From positions 96,001 to 160,000 of the IMG/VR virus record IMGVR_UViG_3300021399_000004: a stretch of DNA of 64,000 nt; one strand, given 5' to 3'. The stretch is from a virus. The notes under the pieces are model-generated. The model was not told the DNA's origin. It did no database searches and saw only the letters and a list, made by a program, of their open reading frames with translations. Both the position numbers and the translations under genes were made by a program. Below, piece by piece: positions 27,183 through 64,000 of this stretch; the stretch's first letter is position 1; every line of letters starts with the position of its first letter.

Positions 27183-27196
27183 GGAAGGGAAGGGGC

Positions 27197-29132: not shown

Positions 29133-30428
29133 ATGAAAAAACCCTATTCATTGGACTTTAGCATAGAACGTGATATCGACCGCGTAACCGCCGTGGCTGA
29201 CATCCTTGACCAATTACCAAAAACGCCATCCGATACCGAACTCGAACAGATGGCTTCCTATATTCTTTGGGGCAAAGACGAAGACGGCTATAATGCCGTC
29301 CAACGGGGAGAAGTTACAAACGGTAATACCCGCTTCTCAAGCTACCGCCGCAAAGACGACAAACTTCTCTCCCTTGACGAAATCGTTGATAACCCACTTT
29401 CCGACCAACAAGCTCTCGCTTCTCCTCACGTCCGCACCGTTTATACCAATAAAAAACCCCAAATTGTGCGGCCGCACCGTGGCAAGGGCGGGGTATGGGA
29501 TCCAGGAGATAGCGAAATTCCTGGCATGACAGAACTTTGGGAACGTATAGACCGCCTTGATCATTAGCTTGCCGTCCTCGAAGGAAAAGTTCCCCCAGAT
29601 GAAACCGTCCAAGTTTGGTTGGATAGTTACCGCATTTACCAACTTAAACATATTTTAATTGACTTACGGCGTCACCAATACTATCTTAAAGATAGCTACA
29701 AGCCAACCCTTCATTTCCTCAATATCGACCACCCAAAACCCCAATTTGTTGATTGGGACTCGGATTCCTTTTACTGGATTCCATACGAAGAATGGTCCGC
29801 GCGCGTAACCTCTTCCCTCCTCCCTATCTCCCAAAACCTAGAAGATTATGAAACAAAAGATTGCGGCGGGAAAATTTTTGTTAAATGGATTGTATCTCGT
29901 CACCACTTTAATTGGGAAGATCCACTTCATGTGCGCGCGCTCATCAACAACTACGATGCGCTTTACGATTAGCTTTACGAAAAGCTAGACACAAGCGGCC
30001 GCACCCTTATCTTTGACTTTGAACGCTACCGTGAAATGGCACATTTTAGCGAAATTCGCAATTATTTGCTTGACCTAAAAATCGCCCGCTATTCTTACGC
30101 CACCATCTCCCAAATGCTTTTATCTACCTACGGCCTTTACTATAATGAAAATCACCTAAGTACAATTTTTGCCAAAGAAATCCCTCAACAATTGGCAGAC
30201 ACGGCAAAGAAACACCGCCTTATCTTGGAAACACCGCCAGATCAACTAAAAACATGTTTCCGTTGCGGCCGTGCCTTACCCCGTGACCCATTATTCTTTA
30301 CACGTAACCGCAGCCGCAAAGATAAATTTTCCTCCAATTGTAAAGAATGTGAGCGATTGAGGCGTATAAAAGGAGGTTAGCCGCAACATGACAGAAGAAG
30401 TAAAGAAGCGACTTTGCATTCGTTGTAA
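29133..30428 (+). CDS. sigma-region-4-like HTH and zinc-ribbon protein (putative late regulator), 3 in-frame TAG
   Basis: One frame joins ORF-track fragments 29121..29567, 29619..29972 and 30036..30380. IRNYLLDLKIARYSYATISQMLLSTYGLYYNENHLSTIF looks like a sigma region 4 HTH. It also has CFRCG...CKECE. The first non-TAG stop is TAA 30426-30428. Confidence 0.5.
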
Positions 30429-31335
30429 GCAAGAACGCGACCCTAGTCAATTTTAGTATACGCCTTCTCCATTCTTCCCTCGTCATCGCTCTTTAATTTG
30501 CACGCCTTGCTTAGAAGCAATGGTTAAACCAGATAACTTCAATTAGGTTGACGCACTTTGCCGCTATTTAGACCTGCCCTTCGATTTAAACAAATGGACT
30601 GCATTGTATGCTACCCATAAGGAGCATACACTTACCGCCTATTTTAATACAATTCTTGATACCCACTATCAAGCATTAAGTTGGGAAGATGAGAATGAAC
30701 GGTGGAAGCTCGCCAAGGAAGAAGGCACCATTGATGATGAAATTAAAGCAATTAGTGAAGCAAAAATGCGGCAACTCAAGAAAACATGGTCTGCCGCCTA
30801 CACTCCAGAAGAACTTATATTCCTTGATACCTTCTATAACCAAATTATAACAACCCAAAATGTTTCTACTCCAATTTTATAGCATTACGCGCGCGACCTT
30901 TGCGAAATTGAGTTAAGAATTAAAAAGGGCTTGCGCGAAGGCGTAGATGTAAAGAAAGACATGGATGCCCGCGACAACATTATTAAAATTGCCCACTTCG
31001 AGGCAAGTAATGCTAAAAACGCGGCTGACTTTGAATCTGTCGGAGAGCTAATGGTTTATTATGGAAAGAAGGGGTGGCATCCGCAATGGCATACCGAGCC
31101 TAAAGACTCTATTGACTTTATGATGGAAAACATTCAAAATTATTTGAAGAGACTGGCTATAAATGAAGGAAACTTTGCTGAACAAGTAGAAGATAAAAAA
31201 TAGAGATATAATATGACGGAGCGCTTAGAGGCTATTGAAAATGAGCAAGTTGAATTTGATGAAAGCGCAGGCATTACATATGAAGGGGAAGATGAATTTG
31301 CAGCAGAATTAACAGGAGGCACTGCCGATGGATAA
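30388..31335 (+). CDS. hypothetical protein, possible small terminase by position, 4 in-frame TAG
   Basis: ATG 30388 lies 11 nt after GGAGG. One frame joins 30604..30882 and 30931..31203. It has an N-terminal CIRC...CTPC ribbon. It ends at TAA 31333-31335, overlapping the terL start (ATGGATAA). Confidence 0.45.
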
Positions 31336-33103
31336 TTCAGTACAAGAAACTATCCCAATTGAAAAAGGTGTCGTCCTTAGTAAAGAATTTTTGGATAAAA
31401 ACGAAAAACTTTTCACTAAATATTTAAACTATTGGCTTTTATATCCAGACGCCTTCTTAGACGCAATTCAAAAAAAGGATGATGCAAAAAATTTTCACCT
31501 ACTTCCATATTAGCGTATAGCTTTGCGCGCGTCCCTACGTTACAGATACCACTATTGGACTGCAACGCGCGCGGCATCTAAATCTTTTACCGCATATTTA
31601 GCAAGCTACGTCCGAGCAACTCTATTACCAAATTCTACTATAATGATTGCCTCTGATACGAAAGGCACCGTTATCAAAATTGCGCAAGCAAAATTTGAGG
31701 AGATTTTTACACATTGGCCGCTATTACGTAACGAACTCACTACTAGGGTAGATGATGGAAAAACAGGACAAAAAACCAGCGGCAACTACTATGAGCTATA
31801 TTTAAAAAATGGTTCTATGATTTCTGTCGTTTCTAAGGATACAAGCCGTGGTTTGCGCGCGAACGCCGCAATTCTTGAAGAGGCCGCTCAAATTTCCGAA
31901 GAAGCATATACAGAAGTTCTTTTGCCGCAAATGAACGTAAAAAGAAGAGAAGTAGATGGCACATTAAATTAGGAAGAGCCATCTAGCCCTCAAATTTTTA
32001 TAACAACAGCCACTGACCGCACTGCCTTTATGTATAGCAAACTAATAGAATGTGCAGTAAATATGGTTTTGCGGCCGAAGGAGTACTTTGTCTGGGGTTT
32101 AAGTTACGAAGTACCACTACATTATGGCCTTATCGATCGCGCAACAATAATGGACCAAAGATATTCAAATAATGTAAGCGATGAATCGTTTTTGCGCGAG
32201 AATATGAGTGTTTGGACTGGCAACAATAAGGAGGCTTGGCTCGATTCTAAGCGCCTTGTCAATCGACGTACTTTATTAAAATGTGAGCGAAAAGCGCAAG
32301 AGAATCCATAGAATCCAGATACTTTTTATTTACTAAGCTGTGACGTAGGCCGCTATAATGCGAATACAGCAATAATGGTTTTTAAGGTTTTACCGCGCGA
32401 AAACTATTTCCAAAAAAATCTTATCTATACAGAAGTCATCCATGGCGCAAATTATATAACCGAATAGGCGCCAAGAATTAAAAAATTAATTGAGTTATAT
32501 CATCCACGAGAGGTTGTGATCGATGGAAACGGGCCAGGAATTGGTCTACTCGACGCGATGGCGCTTCCCTCTTTTAATGCTAAAACTGGTGAGCAATTCC
32601 CGGCTTATTATGTCTTTAATAATGATCATCACTTGCCGCCAGAGATGAAAGCAGGAGCAGAAGAGCCAAAGCCAGAATATAGCGCAATTATTTATGACAT
32701 AAAAGCTGGCGCGACTAATGATGATGAAATCCATTCTAATTTCTTTACTCAAATTAATAATGGTACGGTATCATTACTGGCGAATGAGCGCATTGTAAAA
32801 GATAAATTATTATAGACAAAAAAGGGATAGCGGATGAGTCTATATGATAGAAGAGTATTTTTGTTACCCTATGAAATGACTTCTCGTTTAATAGACGAAT
32901 TAAATAATTTAAAATTAAAGCCAACTGGAGTTTAGAATCAATTTAAAATTGAAAGAATCTCACATTCCTTAGAGAAAGACCGCTTTAGCTCTATGGAATA
33001 TGGTTTATATAGAATTAAACATTATGAAGAGAAAGCATATTAGAAGAAACGCCGCTTTGACGGTAAAAGATTTGCTTTCTTCTCTCCTAAAAAGAGGGGG
33101 TGA
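31328..33103 (+). CDS. terL: terminase large subunit, 591 aa, 8 in-frame TAG
   Basis: One hand-checked frame joins 31328..31513, 31523..31972, 32030..32311 and 32516..32815. It has FHLLPY[TAG]R (the conserved Q of the TerL adenine-binding motif), a Walker A-like TATRAASKS, a Walker B-like AAILEEAA, and nuclease-domain-like SCDVGR and VVIDGNGPG. It ends at TGA 33101-33103. Confidence 0.85.
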
Positions 33104-33108
33104 TAATC

Positions 33109-34662
33109 TTGAGCCATGATAAAAATTAGTTCCATTAGTTTCGAGTGGCACTAAAACCTATTATGCGCGCGCCCTTAACTACCCGAGCATATACAACTCG
33201 TAATGGCTATAGGATAACTGAGCCCGTAGCCGAAGACTTTACTATTGAACAAATTGAAGAGATAATTCGATCTGGAAATTTAGAAGCGATTCGTGAACTT
33301 TCTAGATATTATTATCGGACAAATAGCGAGTATAAGAATAATATAGATTTCCTTGCACACTTATCTCTATATGACTGGGCAATTATCCCATTGTTTTCTG
33401 AAGATGAGAAAGGTTCACGTACATAGATTCTAAAAACCTTTTATAACGCATGTAATTTCATAGAGAAATTAGATTTACCTGTTACTCTTGCGCGAATAAC
33501 TACTGAATGGTTAATATCCGGAGTATATTATGGTATTTTAAGGACAACTGGCAATAAAGTTACCATACAAGATTTACCTATTGAGTATTGCCGTAGCCGT
33601 TTTAAGGATTTCAATAATTTAAACATTCTCGAATTTAATTTACGTTATTTCGAGCAAATTCGTGATGAAGTAATGCGCGAGGAAGCTATATCAACCTTCC
33701 CGCAAATCGTTCAGAAAGCATGGAAGTTGTATATTGCACATAAGCGCAAAGAAGGTGAATGGGTCGCAATTCCTCCAACTGAAGGAGGGATAAGTTTTAG
33801 TTTTGTTAATGACCCGATTCCTGCACTTATTGCCGCGTTACCAGAACTAAAAAAGTTAGACGATGCAACTAAACGAGAAGGCAAACGTGATGAAAATGAG
33901 CTATATAAATTATTAATTTAGCGCATGCCTATTGATAGCAATGGAGAGTTAGTATTTTAGCTAGATGAGGTCGCTGAAATCCATTCTTCAGTTGCTGAAA
34001 TGTTGGCAGATACTGACACTGTTGATGTTTTGACCACTTTTGGTGAGACAAGTCTAGAAAGTTTACAAGATTCTTCTGCCGCAACGTAGTCTAATGATCG
34101 TATGGCAAAATATAAAACTAATGCTTATGGTGCATTAGGGCGTGGAGAAATTTTATTTAATGCAACTAATAGCACTTCTTTAGGATTATAGATTAAAAAA
34201 GATGAAGCACTAATACGAGCATATTTAGACGTGTACGAAGCCTTTATTAGATTTTACCTTAATGACAATTTTATTAGAAAAGGAGTTACCTTTTCTTTCT
34301 AGATTTTGCCAACCACTGTATTTAACCGTAATGAAATACAGACTAGCTATTTCCGTGGAGCACAGTATGGTTATTCTAAAATGCTTGCTGGTGTTTCCAT
34401 GGGAGTATCTTAGATGGAGCAATTAAGTTTGATGCACCTAGAGAATGAATTTTTGGAAATGTCTGCAAAGATGGTTCCTCTTCAATCTTCATATACTACT
34501 TCTGGCACGGCAGTATCTGAAGAAGAAAAAACTCAATCTTCGGTGAAAAAAACATCAACTACATAGACAATAAATGACATAACTAATACAGGGGGACGTC
34601 CTGAGCTTCCTGACGATCAAAAATCGGAAAAAACTCAGGCTAATATTGAAGCTATTTAGTAA
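33109..34662 (+). CDS. portal protein (about 517 aa), about 11 in-frame TAG
   Basis: It lies immediately after terL. One hand-checked frame joins 33145..33426 and 33673..33921. TTG 33109 lies 9 nt after GAGGGGG; GTG 33145 is an alternative start. It ends in the tandem TAG-TAA at 34657-34662. Confidence 0.65.
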
Positions 34663-34676
34663 GGGGGTGAAGAAAA

Positions 34677-35894
34677 ATGGAAAAGAAAATTCCGGTATAT
34701 TTTGATGGAGCTATTCTTTCTTCTCCTCTTGAATAGATTACCCCAAATATTGGGCGGGCAAAAGTTAGAGTATTTACAAAATATGGAAATCGCAATGGTT
34801 CTTATATAACCGACGCAGTAGCTGAATAGCTTATAAAAAGTGCAATTAACGCGCCAGTCATCGGGTTCTTTGATCCTAGCACTCAGTAGTGGGCATCACA
34901 TACGGGCCCAACATTAGCGAGTGCCTATGGCTTTATTGAGTCATTTGTGGGTTGGGAGCCATATGAGGACACAGATGGCGTAAGCCGTGACTATGCAGTT
35001 TTCACTACTGTATTATTTACTAAATATTTTGATGAAGCTAATAAAATTATTGGTCAAAATCAAAGTATGGAGTTAGATATCAACACCATTACTGGTGATT
35101 GGGCAGATATTGATGGCCAAGAATATTTTGTATATACTACGGCAGAGATTCTAGGATGCTGTGTTATTGGTAATCACGAACCGTGTTTCTCTGTTTCGAC
35201 TTTCTTTGCCCTGAACGATCAAGAATATAAAACATAGTATGATAAATTTTCTGCCTTATGTGCTTCTATGGCAGAAGAGTTGAAAAATAACATGCTAAAA
35301 GGAGGGGAAGCGACAATGGACGAGCTTGAAAAGACCACTCCCGTAGAAGAGCAAAATGACGTGGAGCCTAGCGTGGAATATGAGGCTCCTGTTGATACAG
35401 ATAAAGTTGATGATGAGCCTTCTGTGGAAGAGGAAAAAGATGAAGTAAATAATTTTGAGGTCGCTCTGAATGAATTGCAGGCTAAGTTTGATGAACTTAC
35501 TGCTAATTATCAAACTCTAGAAAATAATTATAATGAAGCGATTAATCGTATTAATGAGTTAGAAACAAATAATGCTAATGAAGTAAATACGCTTAATCAG
35601 ACAATTTCTGATCTCCGTGCGGCAGTAGCTACTTATGAGCAGAAGCAAAATGAGCTAGACGCGAGCCGCAAGGAAATGCTAATAGAAAAATATGAAAAAA
35701 TAATTAACGACGCAGAAGAAATTAATAATATTAAAGCGTCTTCTAGTGACTTTTCATATGAAGAATTGGAGAGCAAATTGGCGATAGCTTTTGCAAATCA
35801 AGCTATTAATGAAACCAATGAACAAAAGATCCCGCTACCTGATCCTCAGGTATCTCAATTTGCTTTATTCATGAAAAAATATAAGAAGAATTAA
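34677..35894 (+). CDS. scaffolding protein, possibly fused to a prohead protease domain (405 aa), 4 in-frame TAG
   Basis: One frame joins 34947..35237 and 35268..35894. The C-terminal half is acidic and coiled-coil-like (NELQAKFDELTANYQTLENNYNEAINRINELE). It lies between the portal and capsid genes. Confidence 0.55.
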
Positions 35895-35907
35895 GGAGGA
35901 AACTATT

Positions 35908-36522
35908 ATGGGTATGAACAGGTTTCCATTGACCACTAGCGACAGTTATTCTAGTGTATATCGTCATGGAGAAAAGTTATATGCTACTTTAGAGCTAAAT
36001 CAGGTAGCTTTCCCTAAGACCGGCATGGTTGTTTCTCAGGTCCCTCTAGGCAGTGCCTTTACTGAGGCTGCTCCTTGTGAGAACGGAATGTGGGTCGTGG
36101 CTGATAAGGCCAAGGGCGTAATTGAGGCTCCCGCTGCTGTCGGCGATAAGCCTATTGGTATTGTTTACACTACTGAGAAGGAATATGATAATTATCATTA
36201 TGGCCTTCAGACCTTTGGTCGCAAGATTGCTGGCGACTACCCTCGTGTTGGTTTGCTTGGCGTAGGCGATACTGTAACCACAAATTGCTTACAGTATAAC
36301 ACCGATAATTTCGCTAACGACGCTGCTTTAGATACTTATCTAAAGGGTGATCTAACTGCTGCTGCCACTGCTGCTTATGTAGTAATAAAGGCTGGTTCTG
36401 CAATTCCTGAAATTGTTAAGGCTCTACCGCAGAATTATGCTGGCGCTTATGGCAGAGTTGTAAAATATTACACCGTGCCGAACGGTGCTCCTGGTGTAAA
36501 ATACCAGATGATAAGAGTATAA
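35908..36522 (+). CDS. head protein of unknown role (204 aa), no TAG
   Basis: ORF track, with GGAGG upstream. It lies between the scaffold and capsid genes. Confidence 0.55.
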   Translation: MGMNRFPLTTSDSYSSVYRHGEKLYATLELNQVAFPKTGMVVSQVPLGSAFTEAAPCENGMWVVADKAKGVIEAPAAVGDKPIGIVYTTEKEYDNYHYGLQTFGRKIAGDYPRVGLLGVGDTVTTNCLQYNTDNFANDAALDTYLKGDLTAAATAAYVVIKAGSAIPEIVKALPQNYAGAYGRVVKYYTVPNGAPGVKYQMIRV

Positions 36523-36537
36523 TAGGAGGTGCGAACT

Positions 36538-37605
36538 ATGGATAATTTAAGTATTTTAATGAATGGTGTATTCGGCCGCAAGGTTCCCGCAGAGTTCGCT
36601 GCCGCCGATTATGATTATGAAGCTGCTCTACATGATGAGCTAGTAAAGCTTCTATGCGATGATAAGGGCAAGTTTAATCGTTATAAGTTTGAGAAGAACA
36701 AGTATGACTTGTTTGCCCTATTGACTGAGAATCTAGATGAGGTTCTCCCTCAGAGTCTAAGCTCTGCCTTAGATATGTTTACTGAGGTTATTCGTTTCCC
36801 TCAGGGTTCTCGTCCTGAGTTTGTTGTAAAGCGTGGTAAGCAACGCGGCAAGCAGTTTGTAACTCGTGCTACCGAGTCTGGTAACTATGAGACCTTCAGA
36901 CTAGACCGCGATCGCTTTGATGTATATATTCAGGCTATTGGCGGCGCTGGCTATGTAGACTTTGAGCGCTATCTAGATGGTCTAGAGAGTCTAACTGACA
37001 TTTATGAAGTTATTACCGAGGGCATGGTTGACCGTATTTTCGAGATGGTTATGGAAGCTCTAATGAGCACTTGGAAGCTAGTTCCTACTGCTAACAAGAT
37101 TGCCAGCAACCAGTTCGACCCAACCGCCATGGTAAAGCTTTGCAATGTTGTGGCTGCTTATGGTGTGCCTACTATCTATTGCTCTCCTCAGTTCGCTGCT
37201 GAGATGACCAATGCGATTGTATATAACAATACCACCAAGATTTCTGATCAGGATATGGTGGATGTGCGCGAGCGCGGCTACATTGGTAAGTTCCATGGCG
37301 TGAATGTAGTATTGCTACCTCAGTCCTTTAAGGATGAGACCAATTCTGAGCTAGTGATGAACCCCGCTTTGGCTTTCGTTATCCCAAGCGGCCGCGAGAA
37401 GCTAGTTCGTCTTGCTTTCGAGGGCAATTCTTATTTCCGTGAGTGGGATGACCATGAGGGTGATAACTCTATTACTCTACAAGCTTACACTAAGGTTGGT
37501 GTTGGTATTGTTGGCACTCCTAATTATTGGGGTCTATATTACAATAAGGCTCTAAATAATGCTGATACAGCATGGGGCACTTATAATACTACCAATTTAA
37601 TTTAA
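36538..37605 (+). CDS. major capsid protein (355 aa), no TAG
   Basis: ORF track 36529..37605. ATG 36538 follows AGGAGG. The call rests on size and position, and a very strong terminator follows. Confidence 0.6.
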   Translation: MDNLSILMNGVFGRKVPAEFAAADYDYEAALHDELVKLLCDDKGKFNRYKFEKNKYDLFALLTENLDEVLPQSLSSALDMFTEVIRFPQGSRPEFVVKRGKQRGKQFVTRATESGNYETFRLDRDRFDVYIQAIGGAGYVDFERYLDGLESLTDIYEVITEGMVDRIFEMVMEALMSTWKLVPTANKIASNQFDPTAMVKLCNVVAAYGVPTIYCSPQFAAEMTNAIVYNNTTKISDQDMVDVRERGYIGKFHGVNVVLLPQSFKDETNSELVMNPALAFVIPSGREKLVRLAFEGNSYFREWDDHEGDNSITLQAYTKVGVGIVGTPNYWGLYYNKALNNADTAWGTYNTTNLI

Positions 37606-37613
37606 TATAATAA

Positions 37614-37646
37614 GGGGATGGATGGCATCCATCCATCCCCAATTTT
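37614..37646 (+). terminator. rho-independent terminator after the capsid gene
   Basis: A 12-bp stem, GGGGATGGATGG-cat-CCATCCATCCCC, followed by AATTTT. Confidence 0.8.
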
Positions 37647-37669
37647 GAGGTAAAAGGAGGATTATTATT

Positions 37670-38107
37670 ATGAAAGACATTAGCATTAAGAATGTTAGTA
37701 CAGCAACAGTTGTAATAACATTGCCTGATTTGCACTTCCGCCGCGAATTAACTCCTGGCAGAAGCGCTACGATACCTGAAGAGATTTATAATGAACTACG
37801 ATTTGATCCTGGCACCGCAGGACTATTAGATGATCATTATTTAGTTATTAGCGGCATTGACGATGAAGGTGTAAAGATTACAACAGATGCAGTTGATAGC
37901 ACCGAAATTAGTCGCATGTTTGATGAGCAAGATATAACTGCTTTTGCTAAATTTATTCCTAACGCCGCTCAGGCTGAACGTGATACTGTAATTCGTCTTG
38001 CTATTGATAAGGGCGTAACTGCTCCTGCATTTGTAAGCCTTATTAAAAAGTATTGCGGTACAGATATTATTCAGGCAATTAATTTTAAGCATCTTGCTGA
38101 GGAGTAA
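37670..38107 (+). CDS. hypothetical head/neck protein (145 aa), no TAG
   Basis: ORF track, with AAGGAGG upstream. Confidence 0.55.
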   Translation: MKDISIKNVSTATVVITLPDLHFRRELTPGRSATIPEEIYNELRFDPGTAGLLDDHYLVISGIDDEGVKITTDAVDSTEISRMFDEQDITAFAKFIPNAAQAERDTVIRLAIDKGVTAPAFVSLIKKYCGTDIIQAINFKHLAEE

Positions 38108-38109
38108 TA

Positions 38110-38610
38110 ATGGCTACTTCTTTTTTGAAAGTGTATGATGCCTTTTTGGCTCGTATTACTGCTGATGAATGGACATTGGAAGAAGAGTTAGCCATTGTTG
38201 AGCGGGATTGGCAAGAGCTTTTGAAAATGGCCATCTTCAGATTTAAATATCCAAGGGTTGGGCTTGAAGTAGAAGAAGTAACAGTTGATGATAATAATCC
38301 GCCAACCTTGGCTTCTGAGACAATTAGTGCCTATGAATTTGTAAATGATTTAACAAATGATGAAATTTAGCTCTTAGCTTTATATATGAAACATGAATGG
38401 GTAAAACGTTGTATTGCTAGTTGGGAAAATATTAGATAGCTTTATGCTGATAAAGATTTTAGCCAGGCAAATCATTTAGCAAAGCTAAACGATTTGCAAG
38501 AGGCTGTCGCTTTAGAAGTGCATAAGGCAGAAGGAATATATGATCGTTCACGAGAAAAGCGTCCAGCAAATTTGTTTAAAAAGTTGGCAGGTAAGAAGAA
38601 TGTCGTATGA
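38110..38610 (+). CDS. head-tail connector-like protein (166 aa), 2 in-frame TAG
   Basis: The frame of 38110..38370 continues through TAG to TGA 38608-38610. The role is assigned by position only. Confidence 0.5.
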
Positions 38611-38875
38611 TGTCACTTTTGATGGATATAAGAATAAATTAAAAGGACGTTTATATGGATTACTCTGTGAAAAAGAAAAAGACGGAGAATGGGAAAAATT
38701 CTTAGATGCAATTATTATTGAAATAATGGGCATGAAAGGTGACTCTATTAATTGGTGGCCTTTAATAGGAAAATTACATTCTCTACGTTTCTTATCATAT
38801 GAGTATTTTAGAAAGACAATTTTTGAATGTATGAATTTAATTGGTGGACTAGAGGTGCCAAATGAGTTATCTTAA
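38600..38875 (+). CDS. hypothetical protein (91 aa)
   Basis: In-frame ATG within ORF 38540..38875, overlapping the previous stop. Confidence 0.45.
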   Translation: MSYDVTFDGYKNKLKGRLYGLLCEKEKDGEWEKFLDAIIIEIMGMKGDSINWWPLIGKLHSLRFLSYEYFRKTIFECMNLIGGLEVPNELS

Positions 38876-38894
38876 TAATGTATATTATTAGAGA

Positions 38895-40124
38895 TTGAAT
38901 CATATGGGTGAAACAACTGGCGAGCGCATCCGTAGCGGAGGAATTAGATCTTTTGAAAAATGGATGGCTGAATCGCCTCATACTGTTCAAAATTTATCTG
39001 TTGAACGAGGCATATATTTTCCTGGACTAATCCTAACTAGTAAAGATAAAGAATACGAAAAAATCATGTTTTTAAATGTAAGCAATAATATCCCAATAAA
39101 AGTAGGAGATATTATGACTTGGCCATTAGAAGATGGTACAAATGAAAAATGGTTATTAATTCAAGAAGAAAAAAAGGTAAATGGGACTTACAGAACATTT
39201 TGGATAATTCGTTGTAATTATTTTATTAAATGGATTGATGGACTAGGGCATATATAGAAATCATGGGCATATGCAGTAAGTTCAGTGGATTCTAAGGTAA
39301 AAGGTAATTTTAGAACGTGGAATAATTTAATAACTCCACAACCAAATAAATATATGGAGATTATTTTACCACGATATAATATTAATAGATCTACAAACTT
39401 CCTTATAGAAGATGAATCTTGGCTATTAGTAGAGTACGATTATACCAGCGTTCCTGGAGTAATATATTTATCATTAACTGAAAATAAAGTTAATACTGAA
39501 TATGATAAACCAGATATAGATTTGGCTGACACAGATAAATTAGCTGTTTATAAATTAGCCGTGCCTGCCGAGCATGAAACATTTAAGGTAAATGAACCAA
39601 TCATTCCTACTTGTACATTGCTCAAATCTGGGCAATTAATAAATCTAGAATTGACTTATACCTCTACTGATACTAAAAAGGCAAAAGTGATTGATGGCGT
39701 TTTAACAGCTATCGCGCCAGGAGAAGTTACTTTAATAGTATCTACAAAAGAATTTCCTCACATTCAGCAAGAATGTGTTATTGAAATAATTAATAATGAT
39801 GAATTTGTAGAATCTGCTTATATTGAAGGCCCAGACTGGATTCGTCTTGGAAGGGTCGCAGAATATAAATTAATAATTACACCTGAACCAAATGAACCTA
39901 CAATTGTTTTCTCTATAGATCCATTGGTTGAATAGAAATAGAATTATGATGGAGAAAAGGTGCATTATTTCTCAATCAATAATTTAATTAGTGGCGAATA
40001 GACTAAGAATAATTTATATGTAGTAACAGCAAACGAAACAAATACATTAGGAAGTTGTAAACTTTTAGCAACATATAACGGACATACTTATGAAAAAGAA
40101 ATAACAATTAAACCATTATGGTGA
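38895..40124 (+). CDS. structural protein with an Ig-like (Big_2-type) segment, 4 in-frame TAG
   Basis: One frame joins 38895..39257 and 39285..39935 and continues to TGA 40122-40124. KAKVIDGVLTAIAPGEVTLIVS resembles a bacterial Ig-like domain. ATG 38904 is a possible start. Confidence 0.5.
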
Positions 40125-40135
40125 GGTGATTTTAA

Positions 40136-41405: not shown

Positions 41406-41421
41406 AAAGGGGGTAACTCTT

Positions 41422-42405: not shown

Positions 42406-42420
42406 TTTAATAATTTTAAT

Positions 42421-42452
42421 GAGGGCATATGAAAATATGCCCTCTTTTTTTT
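42421..42452 (+). terminator. rho-independent terminator
   Basis: GAGGGCATAT-gaaa-ATATGCCCTC followed by T8. Confidence 0.85.
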
Positions 42453-42464
42453 ATAGGTGATTTT

Positions 42465-55400: not shown

Positions 55401-58400
55401 GAAGATGTAACATTAGTATATACTGGAGAAACAACTGGCTTTACATTATATAAAGGTGGCGTGCCGGTTGCATAGTTCACGACCGAACAAATTCTAACAG
55501 CATTGAATGTAGCTGACTTAGGTGAGTATTAGGGCCATCGTCTTGTATATAATTTTTAGACAGAAGAATTTGAATTATGGAAGGGTAGTACTCGTATAAC
55601 TGCTTTTTCTACAGAAGAAATTGCTTCTAAATTACTCCTTGATAAAAATGTCACGCCTCTATCAAGAAATACTGTATTACAATACAGAGGCGAGACAGAA
55701 GGCTTCCAAGTTATTGATCAAACAACTGGTTAGCCTCTTGTAATTTTGGGTACTGGCGAAGGAAAAATTGAAGAAGTTGAAGGAACTATAGTTAAAGATG
55801 CTGATGGTAATGTTCACTTTGAATTTACTGATGATACTGGTACTATATACACTGTAGATTTATCTCAATTTTCTGGTTTAGTAGGCACTGGCGCTACAAT
55901 TGATCCTACAAAATGTAAAGCGAAATTTAATAGTGACACTGGCACAATAACATTTTCATATGAAGCCGGTGGCGAAACTATAAGTGAAGAAGTACCAATA
56001 ACTGGTGTTAATTTAACTGGTACTGCTGCATTAACTGATGCAAAAGTTACAGAAATAAAGGCAGCTATCGCTAATGCTAAAGGGTTAACTCCAGACGAAA
56101 AATTAGCATTGTTAAATGCATTAGGTGTAGATAGTTCAGATTATACAATAGATTTAGGAACAGTGACGCCAATCGCAACGGTAGGAACTCCTGAATTTTA
56201 CGGCTTATCTGAAGGTGATAGGTTCTTAGCGAGTATGACTTCTGCTAATTGGACAGAAAGTGCTGCTTAGAGTCATGTGGCAAGTAAAGTATATAGTCCG
56301 TTAAATGGCACTTTATCACATGAGCTCACTCCAGAAGCAACAGCCGCCTATCATGATATTGAAACAAAAGTTAGAAATGGACAAACTCTAACATCCACAG
56401 AAAAAAAGTTTTTAAACTATTTAACACATTCACAACGGCAAAATTCACATTATAAAAATGAAAAAGGTGAAAACGTATTCGTAAGTAAACAAGCTCAAGA
56501 TTTATTAAATGCTAACGCTCTTATTGAGGAAGAATTAATGACATCTTTAATTCCAGCTTTAGCTGGCCTAACAGATATTAATTATGATAAAATTCTTTCT
56601 TTAAGTCAAGCTTTAGGAACAATTGCTATGTCTGGTATGGATATTCAAAAAATTAATTGGCAAGACATAGTTACAAATTTAAGTGCATTGTCTGGTATTA
56701 ATATTGCTCCTAAAGCGCTACAAGATCTAGGTTAGCTTGCAGGCGTGATGGCTTTAATCAGCGGTGGCACCGTAAAAAACCAATTTGGTGTGGAAGTACA
56801 ATCAAACGGTTTACCAGCATTGGCTACTAGTTTAGGTAATTTATCTAATATTTCTTATCCAAAAATTAGTGAAGGTTTAAATAGTATTGCCACTGCATTA
56901 AGTAAAATATCATCTGTTTTATATCCAGTTGATAATAAAGTACCTTTTAAGTCTACTTAGACTGATACCACTAATACTAAAAAATAGGAATTATAGGCAC
57001 TCTTAGATGGCGACTGGAGTGAGCTTGATCCAAGTCAATTAGAATCAGCTGTTGAGGATATGAATCATATTCTAGATGAATAGGCCGCTGAGGATACATC
57101 ATTCTCTGACCGTTTTTAGACAGCTACTGAGAAGTTTACAATAAATGCAAAAATGTTTAACCATATGATTCAATTAGCTAATGATGCACTTGGTTCTACT
57201 CAAATGCCACAAGGTTTAATTGATCTCAAAGGTATGATTTTACAGTTAGTTGGTATTGCTCCAGATACTGAAGAAGCAAAGCATTTAACTGATTTATTCA
57301 AAGGTAGTGTAGAAGATTTCGCTAATACGCCAATCGGACAAATTAATGCTGGCTTTAATGAGTTATAGAAGTCAATTGATAAATTATCTAGTGCAAACTT
57401 TAACGGCGGTTCTAGTGGATTAATTGACGTAAGAGGCGCTATATCATTATTAGCAAAAGCTAGTTTTGGTGCAGTAGCTAGTGGATTAAGTAGTATAAAG
57501 AGCGCTTTAGCAGGATGGAGCTTCCCACAAATACCAGCCTCTTCTGGCGGCAATACGGCTTCTTCTAATGCAAGTCAATCTGCTTAGATGCATACTGCTG
57601 TAGATGCAAAAGGAACAATTGGCCCCGCACAAGCAACTGGCACTCTAATGGGCGAACTCGGCCCTGAACTTTATGTATCAGGTGGCCGGTATCATATCGC
57701 TGGTCAAAATGGTGCAGAATTTGTTGATTTACCTGATGATGCAATTGTCTTTAATCATTTACAAACTAAGAAATTATTACAAACTGGCGTGGCTGGACGC
57801 GGAACGGCTATTACTAATGAACGTACAGCAGTAGCCTATGCAAAAGGCACTGGCCCTGCGATGGCTAGCGCAAGTGCTGTATTGGCTACATTAAAAGAAT
57901 TGCGTGATGCATGGTAGCGTTTAACTGATTTACCACTAAGTTAGCTAGCTGGCATGGGCGGCGGCGGTGGTGGCGGCGGTGGCAGCCAATTCACTAAAGA
58001 CCTCGAACGGTGGTTTAATATACTTTAGAGAATTGCACGCCTTGAAAAACTTATTACGCACGAAGAACAATTATAGTCAAAATTAGAGAATGATCGTTTA
58101 ATTCATGGAAATTAGATATATGCTAGTTAGCAGCGAGAGGCTCAAGCGTTACAGTAGACAATCAATGAAAATCGTGAATTACTTTCTTTATAGCAAGGTC
58201 GTTATCAAGAGCGTATTGACTAGCTCATGCGAGATAATGCATTCTTCCAACGTGTATATACTATTGATTAGAATACCGGAGCTATTTAGTTAAGAAATAG
58301 AGAAAATACACCAGAAGGTGAAGCAATTACATATAATGGTAGAACTTATGATGATGCGTATGCTATTTTAGCTGAAATTGCTGGTGTTAATCCAAACACA

Positions 58401-60260
58401 AATGAACCATTACATAATGCTAAAGAACAACTAGCTATGCTACGCGAAGTATTTGGTGATGCATTAGTAGATTAGTATACTACTTATGATTCTTCTGGCA
58501 AGAAGATTACAAGTGATGAAGAGCGTGTACGCGCTTTCTTTGACATGGCTGATGGATTAAAAACTGAAGTAACTACTTTATAGGATACTTTAGAAGAAAC
58601 CGAAAATGGTATTTTAGAGAATCAACAAAAATTATCTGAAATTCTTTAGAAATATGTAGATAACTAGTTGGCGGTGGAATAGGAGCTTACTGAGGCTATT
58701 GAATCACGTGAATAGGCTGCAATTGATGAAGCATAGAAAGAACGTGATGCATTTAGTAAGCAATAGACAGCATTAATTGATGGTTTAAGTGCATAGTTAG
58801 ATAAAGAGCGTAAAATGTATGAACGGCAACAAGCCGGAGAAGATTTAAATAAAATGCGGCGTTAGCTAGCTATTTTATAGAGATCTGGCGGCTCTCAATC
58901 TCAAATTCGTTCTTTGCAAGATCAAATCAATTCTGCTTCTTAGGAAGCATATTTTACTGCACAGCAAGATCAAATTGATGCAATTAAAGAAGCCTCTGAT
59001 TTATAGTTAGAGCGTATGGATACTCAAATTGAATTAATGACAGAAACATTGGAATATTAGAAAGAAAATGGATTATTCTGGCCCGAAGTTACTTAGATTA
59101 TGCAGCAAAGTCCAGAAGAAATTATGAATTTTATTTAGACTTATAAGCCTAATTATCGTAGTGATTCTGAGTTGCAAATTGAAGAGAATTTACGTCAATT
59201 AAGGAATATTGTAGAGCAATGGACAACAAGGAGAGATGACCCGAATGCTCTTGACGTTAATGGCAATATTACTGAAACTCCAAATGACGTCTATTCAATG
59301 TATAGTAACTGGTATACAAATACAGCATATCGTCAATTTAGTACCGCATTGTTCTCTGAGAATTATGCTGAACGAGATAAATTAAATTAGGATGCTATTA
59401 ATGCATTCTACGAAACTTGGAATAGAACAGGCGATTTACGGTCTGCACAAGACGCGGCTGCCGCGGTATTCTAGTCACATGAGGATAGATTGAGTGAGAG
59501 CGATAGGAATAATCATGCATGGTAGATTGAGTAGAGGAATAATCCTCCTGGTGGCGGAAGCAGTGGAAGCAGTGACTCTGGAGCTTCAGATAACAATGCA
59601 ACTCTCAAGGTAATCGTATATGTAGATGGAGAAATAGAGTCAAGAAAAGCATATGTATATGCTGAACCTTTTATTGTCATGCCAAGGTTCTTCGGGATGC
59701 CTCGTGAAGGGTATGATGTTAGTATTACTCCATCAGAAGGCTTTACAATTTTACCTGGAGAGACAAAACAACTTACAGTTAAGTATACTAAAAATGCAAC
59801 AACTTCTTATTCGACTGTTACAGAAACACCGCCTACGGATGAGTTAACTCCTCATACATTCCAGGGGCAAAAAGATAACACCATTGCATCAAAAGGAATA
59901 GGATATACTGCAACATAGAGTTATGCTAGTGGTAATAGTGATTATAGAACTCGATTAAATAATTTACTAAATCGTCTCAATTCTTCTTCAACATCGTTCG
60001 CACCAGACTTAAATAATTTAACAACAGGTATTGTTATGCAATCTTTCCTCAACTCTTTAGCGTCTTTAGATAATTTTTCTACTTCAATGGAAGTTTTGCG
60101 ACAATTGCAACAAGAGGCTGGTAATTAGGTCACTAATATAGTGAACGTAAATAATCCTGTTATCAGAGATGAAGATGATATATAGAAAATTTCTGATACT
60201 ATTGAATAGAAATTATTATCAATAGCTAAGAAAACTGGAGCTTACATGAACGTGCGTTAA
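43434..60260 (+). CDS. tail tape measure protein, 5,608 codons, about 179 in-frame TAG
   Basis: I read every codon of this frame by hand from ATG 43434 (after GGAGATGAGGGG) to TAA 60258-60260. There is no TAA or TGA, and the only interruptions are TAG, including a TAG-TAG-TAG run at about 49566-49574. The 16 in-frame ORF-track fragments from 44931.. to 59679.. all share the frame. A TP901-type TMP core-like segment is present (NSIAIVTNMTTADLW..LKLAKISGLDYATTTDYMTTALRGFKM..AVNQQELAEAMTRTASS..NIGSALKSIASRYGEL). A C-terminal GPELYVSGGRYHIAGQNGAEFVDLPDDAIVFNH motif and a Gly10 run are also present. Confidence 0.8.
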
Positions 60261-60273
60261 AGGAGGAGTTAAG

Positions 60274-61929
60274 ATGGCTATGAATACATTAATAGGGCAA
60301 GAAATTCCCTAGACCGGACCTAAACGAACTTAGGTCTGGCAAGCGACTCATTATGAGGGAGGCAATCGCCTCCCTCTAATGAACCGCTCTTTTATTAGTT
60401 TTAATTATGATAATCATTGGTGTGAAGATATGGGAGTAATCGCTACAATAGATGGAGATATGATGTCAAAATCTATTTACGGCAATTTTAATGATGTTGT
60501 AAGCGATTTAGAAGGAGTCGATGGCCAATTATATTGGAGCACGCATTTTACTAATAATACTTTATCTTTTACATTATCTACTGACGCCGTGACTGAGCGC
60601 CAATTGGATGAAATTAAAAGGTGGTTAAAACCGGGAAAGATTGCCCCTTTAGTACTTGCAGAGAATCCTAATCGAGAAATTTTAGCTCGTATTAGTGATA
60701 ATCCTCCTGAATATAATATGTTGCCTTTTGAACAAAAAGAAAAAATTAAGCTTGGCGGATATGAATATACAACAAGCACAACGGTATATCGGGGAAGCTT
60801 TTCGGTGACTTTTATAATGGATGAACCGTTCTGGCATGCTAAAAAAAATATTCTAGATATGGATAAGATTTTATATTGGAATAACGCTAATGATAATAGA
60901 AGTGAAATTATTAAAGATAAGGATGCATTAAAAATTATTTTAGAAGATGGTATCCCATTTGGCTCTGTTATGTTAGAGAATGAAAATATGTTATATGGCG
61001 TTCCAAAGAAATATAAAGAAGCATCGAATGATCCGGGCACTCTTCCAATTGTCGGAAAAGCAAAGGTCGGCTTAGCGAAGTTAGGCAGCTGGTTCCATTC
61101 CTATGACAATATAGAAAATTTCAAATTTTTAGGCGGGGAAAGCCAAGCTCAATATTTTTATTATCCTGGAACTGCGCCTTCCGCGCCGACTCTTAAATTT
61201 AAACTAACTCCAGTTTTTGATTTAAATGGTTATATTACAATGCCAAATAATTCTTATTCTAGCCTTAATAATAAAGGATATAATACAATCACAATTGAAG
61301 GGTATAATAAAAAAGAATTGCATTTAACAACGCCGACAGTTTATACTGCTTATAATTAGGCTATTGCTATTGTGAAGTAGGCTGTTGAAGGGCAAAGTAA
61401 TATTAATAATAAAATTAAAATTGATGCTGGCGAATTACGTTAGCTATTAAGAGATGGCGTTAATCATTGGGCTGTACGAAGTTATGCAATTGCAACTTTT
61501 GATAGAATAAAAAGTACGGCTCAAGAGGGTGAAGATTGGTTATCTTCATTAATCGGAGAAATGAAGGGATTCTTTACAGATGACTCAAATGAATTGACTT
61601 CTGCATCTTTTGTCATTAATTGTGAGACTGGAGAAGCTCTTGGCACTTTTAAATATCGAGTATATAATGCGGCTTCTACTAAGAGTAATAAATTTGAGAT
61701 TACAGAGCATACCGAGCAAGTTGGAGATATGATCTTATCTAATAATTTTATTATTGAGGAACGTAATTACTTCTCAGAAGATGGCTTTATTCGCGCGTGG
61801 AGTAATGAGCATAAAAATTACAGCCATCGTATTTATCATGATTTTGGAGTTATGTCTAATGGAGAATTAGTAGAATCAGAAATGGGGCTGCAAGATTTCT
61901 TAATTGAGTATAGATATTATTACTATTAA
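60274..61929 (+). CDS. distal tail protein (Dit-like, Sipho_tail type), 5 in-frame TAG
   Basis: AAAGGAGG lies upstream of ATG 60274. One frame joins 60379..61359 and 61561..61929. SFISFNYDNHWCEDMGVIATIDG is typical of Dit N-termini. The alternative start is ATG 60379. Confidence 0.6.
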
Positions 61930-61948
61930 GAAAAAGGAGATGAAAGGA

Positions 61949-64000
61949 ATGAATATAGAGGAAAGAAAATATGAATTGTCTGTATGGACAATTTAGGATG
62001 AATACATTGTTACTTTGACTAAAGGGGCTGGTCAGGTACAAAAGGCAGAATTTAAGAATAATGTTGATGGTACTATGAGCCTTAATTTTGAGATTCCTAT
62101 GTATATTAGGAGAAATGGAGAACGAATTGAAAACCCCATTTGGTGCAATACAATTAATGGTGTAATAATGGCAGACCTCAAAAAGATTAAATTAATTTTT
62201 AATAAACATACTGACGATGAAGCAATCTATGAATTTATTATTACAAAAGTAACTGAATCACATGAAAAGGATATTTTAACCTGCAAAGTTGAATGTGAAG
62301 GATTAGCTTTCCATGAGTTAGGTAAGCGAGGATATAAAATTTCTTTAACAACAGATGATTATATTAATGATGTAAATGATTGGTTTCATAATGTACCAAA
62401 AGAAGAATAGACAATTTTATTAGCCAATCCTGACGCCGATTCTGTTACATTAACTTTTTCTTCTTTAGTTGCTAGTAAAAGATATTATAGCGTTGGGCAG
62501 TCTCCTACAACTGGGTAGGTTATTGATCCAGAACCAGTAGATGGTGAAACTTATCATCGTATTATAAAATTAACTGATTTGAAACCGGGCACTCAAATTA
62601 ATATTAACAGTGAAGATGGCACACTTGCTCGGCCATGGATTTTAATAGATCAAACTGATAATAGCATGATTACTTGCGCGCAAAGCAAACGCGCATATAA
62701 TGAGACAATAGTAGTTCCTAGTGAATATGTTGTTAATAATATTAAGAAAATAATTACAAAAGCAATTTTAATTGTTTAGTTTAGAGAAAATGTTGGCGGC
62801 ATGACAATAAATGATGCTTTTGTTACAAAAATGATTAATCAGAGCTATGGGCCACTTCCGCAGGCAAATATTGAATACTGGTTAAATAAATTTTTATCTC
62901 CATATCCAAGTTATGGTGTTAATTTATTATAGCCTAATGTATCTTATGATAACATAACGGCTGGGATGAGTGTGCCAATCAATCCAAGAAAATGGTACTA
63001 TACAATAAGAATGAATTGGGGCGGATTTTCAGAATATACTGTTAGATAGCCTAATAAAATTTATGAAGAAGAATATGTTGGCTCATGGGAATACGACAGT
63101 GAGAATGAAGCAATTTATGCTAATGCAATGGTCGATAAGCAAGAAAAATATCGTTTAGTTGATCTACAAGAAAGCAATATTTATAACCTAACGCAAGACC
63201 TTGCAAAAACTTTTGGCGTGTTTTGCCGCTATGAATATTTATATGATTAGCAATATCATATTATTGGGCGCTTAATTGTATTTTATAATAGTTTTTTTGA
63301 AGAACAGAATGGTTATTTAGATATAACTTATCCATATTCTACAGATACAATTACTCGTGAAATGGACGGCAGCGAAATAACTACTAAATTATTTGTAAAG
63401 CCAGTAAGTTTAGAAGAAAATGAAGAAGTAGATATAATGAATTTAGATACTAATAAAACTTTAGAAGATTATATTCTTAACTTTAATTATTTAAAAACAA
63501 TTGATTCGCTTACGGAAGAATAGAGACAAGGCATAGATAATTTTGAAGTTTAGATGAGACAATTGAATAAAGAAATTATTAAATATAGTGAAATGGAAAT
63601 TAGCTTTAATGAGCCATTGGTTGATCTTGAAGCAAAACGAACAATAATTGAAAATTCTATCAATGAGAATACAAAAGCATTAGAAGAAATAGCACGTTCG
63701 CGCGCGGCATTAACATAGACAGGATACTTAACTGTTGGTTATGGTTTTGTCCTTTCTGAAGAAGATGACCCCCATTTTGCAGAACGCGGTAAATCTAACA
63801 AAATGCCTGAATTAACAATTATTACTGCAATGGAAGGGCAAGCAGAATTTGATGATTCGGCCTTTTAGGATGATGCAGTTGTTAGGTTTTCTTCGTCCTC
63901 AGTTACTGGGAAAAAAGAATATTATTCAGTTGGCGAAAGCCCAGTGGCTGGTCAAGAGATTACTAATGTTACACAAGATGCAGATCATACTCATTATATT
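61949..64000 (+). CDS. tail-associated (Tal / prophage tail endopeptidase-like) protein, 5' part, at least 15 in-frame TAG
   Basis: ATG 61949 follows AAAGGAGATGAAAGG. The hand-checked frame joins 62015..62410 and 62579..62779 and runs open to the window end. YELSVWT...DGTMSLNFEIPMY is a Tal-like N-terminus. Confidence 0.6.

Follow-up and report, generated by a model that had tools for sequence, protein, structure and literature searches.

The subject of this study is a stretch of viral DNA of 64,000 nucleotides (positions 96,001 to 160,000 of the IMG/VR virus record IMGVR_UViG_3300021399_000004; in the following called the window), which very probably represents about half of a roughly 130–180 kb genome of a sheep-rumen siphovirus that translates TAG as glutamine (genetic code 15). 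The recoding was followed in the late operon, a series of 18 plus-strand genes at positions 29133–64000 (R1 to R18, numbered by position), 17 of which are complete and each of which has a Shine–Dalgarno-like AGGAGG or GGAGG before its start. Of these 18 genes, 13 could be shown to use TAG as a sense codon, as do a helicase gene and an endolysin gene outside the operon. The source contig of the window, to which a window protein led, is scaffold_147 (129,144 bp) of the sheep rumen assembly ENA ERZ28612961, and 74 kb of it were examined, namely the window and 10 kb beyond its left end. Exact matches to the ends of the window were found neither in IMG/VR nor in GTDB genomes.

TAG as a sense codon in the late operon and beyond

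The late genes (11,561 codons) contain 244 in-frame TAG codons but not a single TAA or TGA. Both codons together amount to 8.3% per codon in the two other reading frames, which would give about 964 chance occurrences in the late genes; for their complete absence, log10 P is −437. These numbers bear out the proposal of the initial annotation of this DNA that the late frames are interrupted by TAG only. The same annotation stated that the genes end at TAA or TGA, and indeed the complete late genes terminate at TAA (13 of 17) or TGA (4 of 17) and never at TAG; the sequence ATGGATAA at 31328 is the start of the large terminase gene overlapping the stop of the preceding gene, as had been noticed before. 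When TAG is taken as a stop, the operon falls into 262 pieces with a median length of 23 amino acids; 61 of these pieces have at least 60 amino acids, which accounts for the about 60 fragments counted previously. That an annotation with translation table 11 shreds the window in this way is also a practical lesson for the annotation of such phages.

Comparing tables 11 and 15, as the initial annotation had suggested, raises the coding density of the annotated frames from 48% to 99.2%. Similarly, open reading frames (ORFs) of at least 100 codons cover 45.7% of the region 29133–64000 with three stop codons and 99.8% with TAG as a sense codon. Taking TGA as the sense codon instead increases the coverage merely from 45.7% to 52.9%, and taking TAA brings no real gain. 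With TAA and TGA as the sole stops, an unbroken series of plus-strand frames runs from 29106 to the end of the window, one of them having 5,623 codons. The G+C content of the window is 38%.

The reading through TAG is in agreement with the protein profiles. The profile match of the portal protein (residues 51–515, E = 2.8e-67) spans 11 TAG codons, and PF10145 matches residues 463–672 of the tape measure protein (E = 3.7e-30) in full length across TAG codons. The run of three TAG codons reported earlier could be located in frame at 49566–49574; four TAG-TAG doublets are also present, and all of these lie within the tape measure gene. In the whole late operon the glutamine-type codons are 244 TAG, 293 CAA, and 86 CAG, corresponding to a TAG share of 39%. 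CAG is depleted in the genes using TAG, as expected if changes from CAG to TAG are silent. Genes identical to those of the source contig are found on six other contigs, and one exact window protein is present on seven contigs from at least four independent assemblies; thus, the recoding is not an assembly artefact.

The initial annotation placed the recoding throughout the module at 29133–64000. The range is correct in so far as 13 of the 18 genes contain TAG, but five genes are free of it (35908–36522, 36538–37605, 37670–38107, 38540–38875, and 41422–42405) and the recoding extends beyond the module. A gene for a superfamily-2 helicase-like protein of 469 amino acids (4379–5788, plus strand; PF04851 ResIII, E = 2.1e-6) carries eight TAG codons and ends with TAA, and in the publicly available gene predictions for the source contig it likewise has 469 amino acids. 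To the left of the window there are 24 small genes which stop at TGA (16 genes) or TAA (8 genes), followed by a gene for an endolysin with SpoIID, NlpC-P60, and peptidoglycan-binding (PG-binding) parts which contains five TAG codons. The early and accessory block (27–24028, mostly minus strand) is without TAG. It encodes two DEDD-exonuclease-like proteins, a label judged from their sequence as they have no Pfam match, as well as PcfJ-like, HAD, and NT5C-like proteins and three paralogues of 110 amino acids. All long minus-strand ORFs of the window that are delimited by TAA or TGA contain no TAG and terminate with TAA or TGA. Because the early genes, which are transcribed divergently from the late operon, use TAG neither as sense codon nor as stop, they can be translated correctly by an unmodified host. 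TAG is never a terminator in the 74 kb examined. Thus, TAG is a sense codon genome-wide which is avoided in the early block and serves as a stop nowhere in these 74 kb, and the recoding is biased to the late genes for structure, packaging, and lysis, the helicase in the early region being the exception.

The meaning of TAG in the window and in a sister lineage

Relatives of the window were collected by a scan of IMG/VR with the large terminase (TerL). This yielded 29 relatives with 69–79% TerL identity from a small set of metagenome samples, which we guess from the sample numbers to be rumen samples. The TerL genes of these relatives have between 0 and 12 TAG codons each and never TAA or TGA. 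Some of the relatives have no TAG at all in the compared genes (L002, L005, L016, and L133), so that the relatives are a fair control for the meaning of the codon. In the codon alignment of TerL, the columns 47, 61, 221, 276, and 381 hold nothing besides TAG, CAA, and CAG. Column 61 corresponds to the glutamine of the conserved N-terminal LPY-Q-R motif upstream of the Walker-A-like sequence TATRAASKS and contains TAG nine times, CAA six times, and CAG four times in 19 sequences. In the window this is TerL codon 62 at 31511–31513 (plus strand), where the initial annotation had already recognized a TAG at a conserved glutamine.

The codon alignments of R1 to R15 contain 49 scorable columns with a TAG of the window, and the majority residue of these columns is glutamine in 27, glutamate in 5, serine in 5, and lysine in 4 cases. 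For a control, the alignment partners of each ordinary amino acid were tabulated from these 15 genes, and the TAG profile was compared with every one of the resulting profiles. The log-likelihood of the window profile is −102.5 for glutamine, −158.5 for glutamate, and −159.0 for lysine, and glutamine leads all other amino acids by over 50 units. The codon usage points in the same direction: CAA and CAG account for 2.6% glutamine in the window genes and for 3.7% together with TAG, as compared to 3.8–4.3% in the TAG-free relatives, whereas the glutamate content is normal (8.3%). In the tape measure gene the TAG codons of the window pair most often with glutamine of the standard-code homologue (13 of 63). 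Thus, in the alignments with homologues, which the initial annotation had named as a check, glutamine is the commonest partner of the window's TAG codons in R1 to R15, TerL among them, and in the tape measure, and as judged from these comparisons TAG most likely means glutamine in the window.

When each relative is tested by itself, the log-likelihood is highest for glutamine in 17 relatives and for glutamate in the three relatives L023, L025, and L030. In these three, TAG aligns to glutamate in 57% (L023), 39% (L025), and 55% (L030) of the cases and to glutamine in about 6% (tabulated for L023), and many of their TAG columns read glutamate in every other sequence. Their content of glutamine codons is normal (3.5–4.6%) and their glutamate content is low (7.6–7.8%) until TAG is added. 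L023 and L030 are 91% identical, but L025 is merely 78–79% identical to both; therefore, the glutamate lineage comprises more than one genome. Its loci L023, L025, and L030 are found with the contigs IMGVR_UViG_3300021399_000108 and IMGVR_UViG_3300021399_000301.

In addition to the alignment columns, this lineage has tRNA genes with the anticodon CUA. One of them (L408:5922–5996, sequence GGCGGTGTCTTCTAGTGGTTAGGAAAGCGGTCTCTAAAACCGCGAACCTGAGTTCGATTCTCAGTACCGCTACCA, Rfam 56.6 bits) is located on the contig that holds L030 and the other one (L392:2961–3035) on IMGVR_UViG_3300021399_000301. Both were reached with a ClpP-like query, which led to tRNA arrays 6–10 kb upstream of ClpP with altogether 78 tRNAs, only these two having the anticodon CUA. 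For the neighbouring replication genes the partners of TAG were tabulated for selected genes, since antisense ORFs contaminate a tabulation of all ORFs. In the contig with L392, TAG columns contain glutamate in 8 of 8, 7 of 8, and 12 of 28 homologues, and none of the TAG columns there has a glutamine majority; at L408 one TAG stands in a column with glutamate in 29 of 30 sequences.

Both CUA tRNAs have the base pairs U11-A24 and U13-G22, A46, a variable region of four nucleotides without nucleotide 47, and A37, features which are the major structural identity determinants of the E. coli tRNA-Glu (review PMC9976931). They also share G1-U72 and A73 with the tRNA-Glu(UUC) of the family. The tRNA-Gln genes of the family differ in having U1-A72 or A1-U72, G73, and a longer variable region, and U1-A72 is the pair by which the amidotransferase recognizes Glu-tRNA-Gln (PMC2777447). 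The 18-nt D-arm of the suppressors occurs ten times in 185,579 prokaryotic species genomes (one per species), nine times in a tRNA-Glu gene (seven CUC and two UUC) and never in a tRNA-Gln gene, and the suppressors align without gaps to the tRNA-Glu genes sharing this D-arm. The simplest reading is that the suppressor of this lineage is a tRNA-Glu(CUC) whose anticodon has turned into CUA and that TAG would be read as glutamate. This reading has two independent lines of support, the alignment columns and the tRNA.

It is likely that one family of rumen phages, with about 75% protein identity in the compared genes, has captured the amber codon with at least two meanings, namely glutamine in the window and most relatives and glutamate in the sister lineage, other members keeping the standard code. 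In the peritrich ciliate nuclear code (NCBI table 30) TAG is read as glutamate as well; unlike the sister lineage, these organisms are eukaryotic and have also reassigned TAA. For phages and bacteria we found no report of TAG as glutamate in the literature searched, and the change of TAG to glutamine and of TGA to tryptophan were the sole changes which Borges et al. saw in phages differing from the code of their host. If true, the glutamate reading would be a code variant unreported for phages or bacteria in this literature. A family with otherwise syntenic, about 75% identical members that use the standard code, glutamine, or glutamate would serve as a natural experiment in which the capture of a stop codon, the choice of its amino acid, and the frequency of changes in its meaning can be followed.

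The use of TAG also differs between the genes of the operon, and these differences are conserved in the family. In the glutamine-reading relatives the share of TAG among the glutamine-type codons is 50% in TerL, 46% in the tail-region gene R13, and 43% in the Ig-like structural gene R11, whereas no TAG is found among 43 such codons of the head-region gene R6 (8 relatives), 73 of the putative capsid gene R7, and 26 of the tail tube gene R14. R7 is devoid of TAG in all lineages (0/73, 0/52, and 0/76), and R6, R7, and R14 are also TAG-free in the low-TAG and the glutamate lineages with the exception of a single TAG in R6 of one glutamate-lineage relative. In the window these three genes have a higher G+C content and prefer CAG over CAA, opposite to their neighbouring genes. 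The head-region protein, the tail tube, and the putative capsid are presumably the most abundantly made virion proteins.

The decoder and the alternative explanations

Neither Rfam nor ARAGORN, the latter run with default, relaxed, and intron-tolerant settings, revealed a credible tRNA gene in the window; no Rfam family was matched there, and no release factor or synthetase was detected among the 20 largest ORFs of its left half, which were translated and 10 of which were scanned against Pfam. The initial annotation, which had seen neither a suppressor tRNA nor a release factor gene in the window, is thus confirmed in this point. The 10 kb beyond the left end likewise have no tRNA, release factor, or synthetase gene. 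These findings are consistent with the decoding machinery being located elsewhere in the genome or in the host. We also scanned about 5 Mb around seven anchors, i.e., TerL, a small multi-copy early gene, the endolysin, the tail-associated protein, DNA polymerase III alpha, a Sak4-like ATPase, and a GyrB-like gene, and found 35 tRNAs, none of them with the anticodon CUA. A CUA tRNA is also not present in L031 or in the glutamine-lineage loci L027, L212, L289, and L357, and the glutamine-lineage contig that was followed furthest (IMGVR_UViG_3300031992_000015) has no tRNA in the place equivalent to the tRNA arrays. The genomes of the family have the early accessory genes on one strand and the late operon on the other strand, followed by a divergent replication module with RuvC, dUTPase, NrdD/G, DNA polymerase III alpha, the Sak4-like ATPase, the GyrB-like protein, permeases, PhoH, ClpP, and ligase. 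That the phage itself encodes the decoder is plausible, as the sister lineage has a CUA tRNA in a tRNA array near these replication genes.

We suggest that a suppressor tRNA with a CUA anticodon which ends up with glutamine would outcompete release factor 1 (RF1) late in infection. This tRNA would most likely be encoded by the phage in the unseen part of the genome, in a tRNA array on the replication side as in the sister lineage. A model for such a decoding step is supE (glnV) of E. coli, a CUA tRNA that carries glutamine and competes with RF1 at UAG; this is, however, a partial suppressor in a cell that keeps TAG as a stop, unlike the genes of the window, which have no TAG terminators. The late regulator, the terminase, the portal, the tape measure, the tail tip, and the endolysin would be completed solely once the suppressor acts. 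The recoding might then be a translational lock on the late and lytic functions as proposed by Borges et al., the timing being our inference. The competition with RF1 would make TAG costly, and TAG might be purged from the genes with the highest output; suppression is presumably slower or leakier than ordinary decoding, and therefore TAG would be selected against where a very high output is needed. The contrast within the operon, TAG making up half of the glutamine codons in TerL but being absent from the tail tube and putative capsid genes and, apart from one codon in one relative, from R6, speaks to the cost of suppression as well as to the lock idea.

The hosts of the relatives are Bacillota. 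Many Bacillota lack a glutaminyl-tRNA synthetase (GlnRS) and produce Gln-tRNA by a non-discriminating glutamyl-tRNA synthetase (GluRS) together with the amidotransferase GatCAB. In such a host, a tRNA-Gln-like suppressor would first be charged with glutamate and then amidated, and a CUA tRNA would thus give glutamine or glutamate depending on whether GatCAB accepts it. Glutamine and glutamate might thus be the easiest meanings for a CUA tRNA in Bacillota, which would explain the sister lineage with TAG as glutamate; we put this forward as a suggestion. If true, the pair of meanings would suggest that amber codons are captured by way of the GluRS/GatCAB route of Bacillota.

Several points weigh against glutamine as the meaning of TAG and against a decoder of the phage. 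Merely 27 of the 49 TAG columns of the window have a glutamine majority, the others being variable positions; ordinary glutamine codons behave alike, with 54% of them pairing with glutamine in the control. The glutamine signal of the tape measure is weak because its identity to the homologues is just 20–40%. Five of the columns have a glutamate majority, the relatives L023, L025, and L030 do place TAG at glutamate columns, and ARAGORN labels the CUA tRNAs as "Pyl", a label it gives to any tRNA with this anticodon. One might therefore argue that TAG is a sense codon in the window but is translated as glutamate, as in the sister lineage, or as another amino acid such as pyrrolysine, lysine, tyrosine, or tryptophan. 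Nevertheless, we regard this as very unlikely, since glutamine fits 56 log-likelihood units better than glutamate or lysine, TAG codons of the window stand in invariant glutamine columns which pyrrolysine or another non-standard residue would not occupy, and glutamine codons are depleted (2.6%) but glutamate codons are not (8.3%). Another explanation would be that TAG is still a stop and that the late genes are decayed pseudogenes or are expressed by rare programmed read-through, as might be suggested by the 262 pieces under table 11 and by the missing suppressor in the window. To this explanation we give practically no credence. Frames which are interrupted by one stop type alone, with 244 TAG and none of the approximately 964 expected TAA and TGA codons, the conservation at the protein level in 29 relatives with TAG, CAA, and CAG interchanging, and the lack of any gene ending at TAG do not agree with it, and a gene of 5,608 codons with 178 TAG is beyond a read-through of low efficiency.

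Granted that TAG is read as glutamine in the late genes, the question arises where and by what it is decoded. Block-wise coding, with TAG terminating in the early block and being a sense codon in the late block, has been described for crAss-like phages (Mgcod preprint), and the early minus-strand genes of the window are compatible with the standard code as they have no in-frame TAG. A genome with two such codes is nevertheless very unlikely here, about as unlikely as a different amino acid at TAG: no early gene ends at TAG, the 24 genes on the left stop at TGA (16) and TAA (8), and the TAG-rich helicase gene lies within the early region. As the early genes stop at TAA or TGA, the early block is TAG-free rather than TAG-terminated. 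The decoder itself could be supplied by the host, i.e., by rumen Bacillota which read TAG as glutamine or have a natural amber suppressor. We know of no bacterium with TAG as glutamine. What speaks for the host is that a decoder of the phage is inferred and not seen: the window and the 10 kb to its left contain neither a CUA tRNA nor a release factor or synthetase gene, the same holds for about 80 kb (four loci) of the nearest long contig of the glutamine lineage, and these scans cover 74 kb of the 129-kb source contig, of which about 55 kb remain. Moreover, suppressor tRNAs have been found in merely 35–40% of the recoded phages (Borges et al.). On the contrary, the avoidance of TAG in the early genes is sensible solely if the newly infected cell does not read TAG as glutamine, there are close relatives with the standard code or with TAG as glutamate, the glutamate lineage has its own suppressor, and half of the genome is unseen. 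A decoder from the host thus appears rather unlikely, and we favor a suppressor encoded by the phage.

Gene content, related phages, and other features of the window

The recoding as such is known, and the window is a remote addition to the already described phages with genetic code 15. Gut phages with this code, among them crAss-like phages, have been described repeatedly (Ivanova 2014; Yutin 2021; Borges 2021/22) and the code was validated by metaproteomics (Peters 2022). As in the window, these phages have TAG at glutamine positions, are enriched for it in genes for structure, packaging, and lysis, have early genes compatible with the standard code, and have relatives using the standard code. 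The crAss-like phages with code 15 infect Bacteroidota, however, whereas the phage of the window is a large siphovirus of the Bacillota type from the rumen. The family of the window further differs in its strictly TAG-free genes for the tail tube and the putative capsid, in the sister lineage with another meaning of TAG, and in that no suppressor tRNA has been seen yet in its glutamine-reading members.

The nearest phage in GenBank is phAss-1 (OQ749652), which is filed under "Caudoviricetes code 15 clade" and has 29% identity in the portal and 36% in the protein at the capsid position. This phage of the proposed genus Phassvirus originates from the human gut, uses code 15, has a predicted host of the Clostridia, and carries 36 tRNAs including three CUA suppressors (Babkin et al. 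2023). Both phages read TAG as glutamine in the genes for TerL, the portal, and the tape measure, and they share a DNA polymerase III alpha gene and a tape measure of great length (3,149 amino acids in phAss-1). The relationship is nevertheless distant. phAss-1 has many tRNAs, whereas the family of the window has few tRNAs and a tape measure of 5,608 amino acids. A megablast search of 29133–43400 against 50,697 phage records gave no match, phAss-1 included, and hence no nucleotide similarity at genus level to a described phage. Next in similarity are large siphoviruses of Enterococcus, Bacillus, Lactococcus, and Staphylococcus with the standard code. The SPbeta-like phages and the groups of Enterococcus EF1/VRE9, Bacillus PBC2/Kirov/Thrax, and Lactococcus 949/P1048 have homologous portal (21–29% identity), tail tube (30–33%), YonG-like, and YomG-like proteins. 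SPbeta-like and other large siphoviruses of Bacillota share a similar gene order and a giant tape measure gene, but they use the standard code and their homology is remote. Portal, capsid-position, tail tube, and tail-associated proteins and the giant tape measure are in the same order in the window as in the phAss-1/SPbeta-like group at identities of 21–44%.

The gene order TerL, portal, scaffold, capsid, tail, tape measure, distal tail (Dit), and tail-associated protein (Tal) proposed by the initial annotation largely holds; it is borne out for TerL, portal, tail tube, tape measure, and Tal, whereas small terminase (TerS), scaffold, capsid, connector, and Dit are positional guesses. The operon is preceded by a predicted sigma-70-like promoter (29077–29106, plus strand) with TTGACA at 29077–29082, an 18-nt spacer, and TATAAT at 29101–29106, as read from the sequence, which is followed by AGGAGG and stands before the first late gene containing TAG. 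This gene, R1 (29133–30428), encodes a putative late regulator of 431 amino acids with a sigma-factor-like region and a C-terminal zinc ribbon; it contains three TAG and ends with TAA. Residues 257–408 match PHROG 5767 "sigma factor" (E = 1e-14), and the protein is conserved in 22 relatives with 58–66% identity. R2 (30388–31335; four TAG, ending with TAA and overlapping the start of TerL) encodes a conserved YonG-like protein of 315 amino acids which matches PHROG 3314 (E = 2.5e-37). Its orthologue at L137, adjoining TerL, carries PF27269 YonG_N, and it is possible that R2 is the small terminase. TerL itself (R3, 31328–33103) has 591 amino acids, eight TAG, and a TGA stop and is assigned by weak matches to terminase PHROGs and by its conservation in the family. 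The N- and C-terminal halves of TerL match two separate PHROGs of "unknown function" (15503 and 24618), which may have been built from standard-code fragments of TAG-recoded terminases.

The portal gene R4 (33100–34662; 520 amino acids, 11 TAG, TAA stop) is identified by the above match to the portal PHROG 2739, and tblastn hits include proteins annotated as portals in phages of Enterococcus, Bacillus, and Lactococcus and in SPbeta-like phages. R5 (34677–35894; 405 amino acids, four TAG) matches PHROG 3313 (E = 1.4e-16), has an acidic, coiled-coil-like C-terminal half, and would be the scaffold by its position. The head-region gene R6 (35908–36522; 204 amino acids) has no TAG, every glutamine codon being CAG. 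R7 (36538–37605; 355 amino acids, no TAG) is the putative major capsid protein by position and matches PHROG 4088 (E = 1.7e-50); its homologues in phAss-1, Enterococcus, and SPbeta-like phages are annotated merely as hypothetical, and no sequence match was found in the PDB. It is followed by R8 (37670–38107; 145 amino acids, no TAG), by R9 (38110–38610; 166 amino acids, two TAG, TGA stop), a conserved protein of the head-tail region with a match to PHROG 3853 (E = 4.9e-25), and by R10 (38540–38875), which encodes a small protein without TAG whose true start is probably the ATG at 38600.

The tail part of the operon starts with R11 (38862–40124; 420 amino acids, five TAG, TGA stop), a structural protein with an Ig-like region and matches to PHROGs including "structural protein with Ig domain". 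R12 (40136–40645; 169 amino acids, three TAG, TGA stop) and R13 (40632–41405; 257 amino acids, seven TAG) encode tail-region proteins. The tail tube (major tail) protein R14 (41422–42405; 327 amino acids, no TAG) is 30–33% identical over 91% of its length to annotated tail tube or major tail proteins of Bacillus phages in tblastn, and R15 (42465–43376; 303 amino acids, three TAG) lies between the tube and the tape measure genes, which is the usual position of a chaperone. The tape measure gene R16 (43434–60260) is a single uninterrupted frame of 5,608 amino acids with the PhageMin_Tail domain PF10145, and its glutamine-type codons are 178 TAG, 179 CAA, and 48 CAG. Two relatives have tape measure genes of 4,085 amino acids, in a TAG-free genome, and of 5,008 amino acids, both running off the ends of their loci (L133:1–8042 and L134:1–7758). 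As a long tape measure is also present in relatives, one of them TAG-free, its length is characteristic of the family and does not result from the translation of TAG as a sense codon. With the usual tail length of 0.15 nm per residue of the tape measure, the protein of the window predicts an exceptionally long tail of about 0.8 micrometres. R17 (60274–61929; 551 amino acids, five TAG) is in the Dit position; in L133 and L134, genes for 643–736 amino acids stand in the corresponding place, after the tape measure gene and before the gene for Tal. R18 (61949–64000; 11 TAG) encodes Tal and is cut by the end of the window; it has 35 homologues, one of which (P0127) carries PF06605 Prophage_tail, and a faint match to YOMG_N, and the exact protein sequence is not in the protein database.

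The early region contains a 20-bp palindrome (TTAGATGT-N4-ACATCTAA) in 37 copies between 6135 and 25239 as compared to 0.07 expected copies, for example, at 7012–7031, 17570–17589, and 24964–24983. It occupies nearly every intergenic gap of the early genes. Some relatives, the glutamate lineage among them, have 11–28 copies of the palindrome arm in their early regions; others have the variant arm TTAGGTGT or none. The palindrome might act as an operator, as a terminator, or in recombination. The early genes are separated from the late operon by a non-coding region of 3 kb (24080–27130) with 17–23% G+C which contains further palindromes, motifs of the sequence "AAATGAAAT", and, at 26143–26509, a degenerate microsatellite (TGTATA/TATATATG)n with a length of about 350 bp, and which may be an origin or packaging region. 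It is followed by a block that has 53–64% G+C (27130–28900) in a genome of 38% G+C. Four small genes lie in this block on the minus strand, each of them between G-rich hairpins (GGGGAGGG...CCCTCCCC). These genes have no Pfam match and a weak match in two relatives alone, and the block looks recently acquired.

The three paralogues of 110 amino acids (11008–11340, 14723–15064, and 17632–17976, minus strand) each lie in a local G+C-rich island. The protein database contains 1,789 members of their family, and most of those inspected are from rumen assemblies. In the relatives, single tRNA genes, mostly tRNA-Lys (CUU or UUU), are often located within about 500 bp of a copy of this family. The replication module of relatives also contains two tandem xanthine/uracil permease genes (PF00860; L437:19438–22021, L441:10638–13215, and L289:3929–6525) adjoining a nucleoside deoxyribosyltransferase gene, which is an unusual cargo for a phage.

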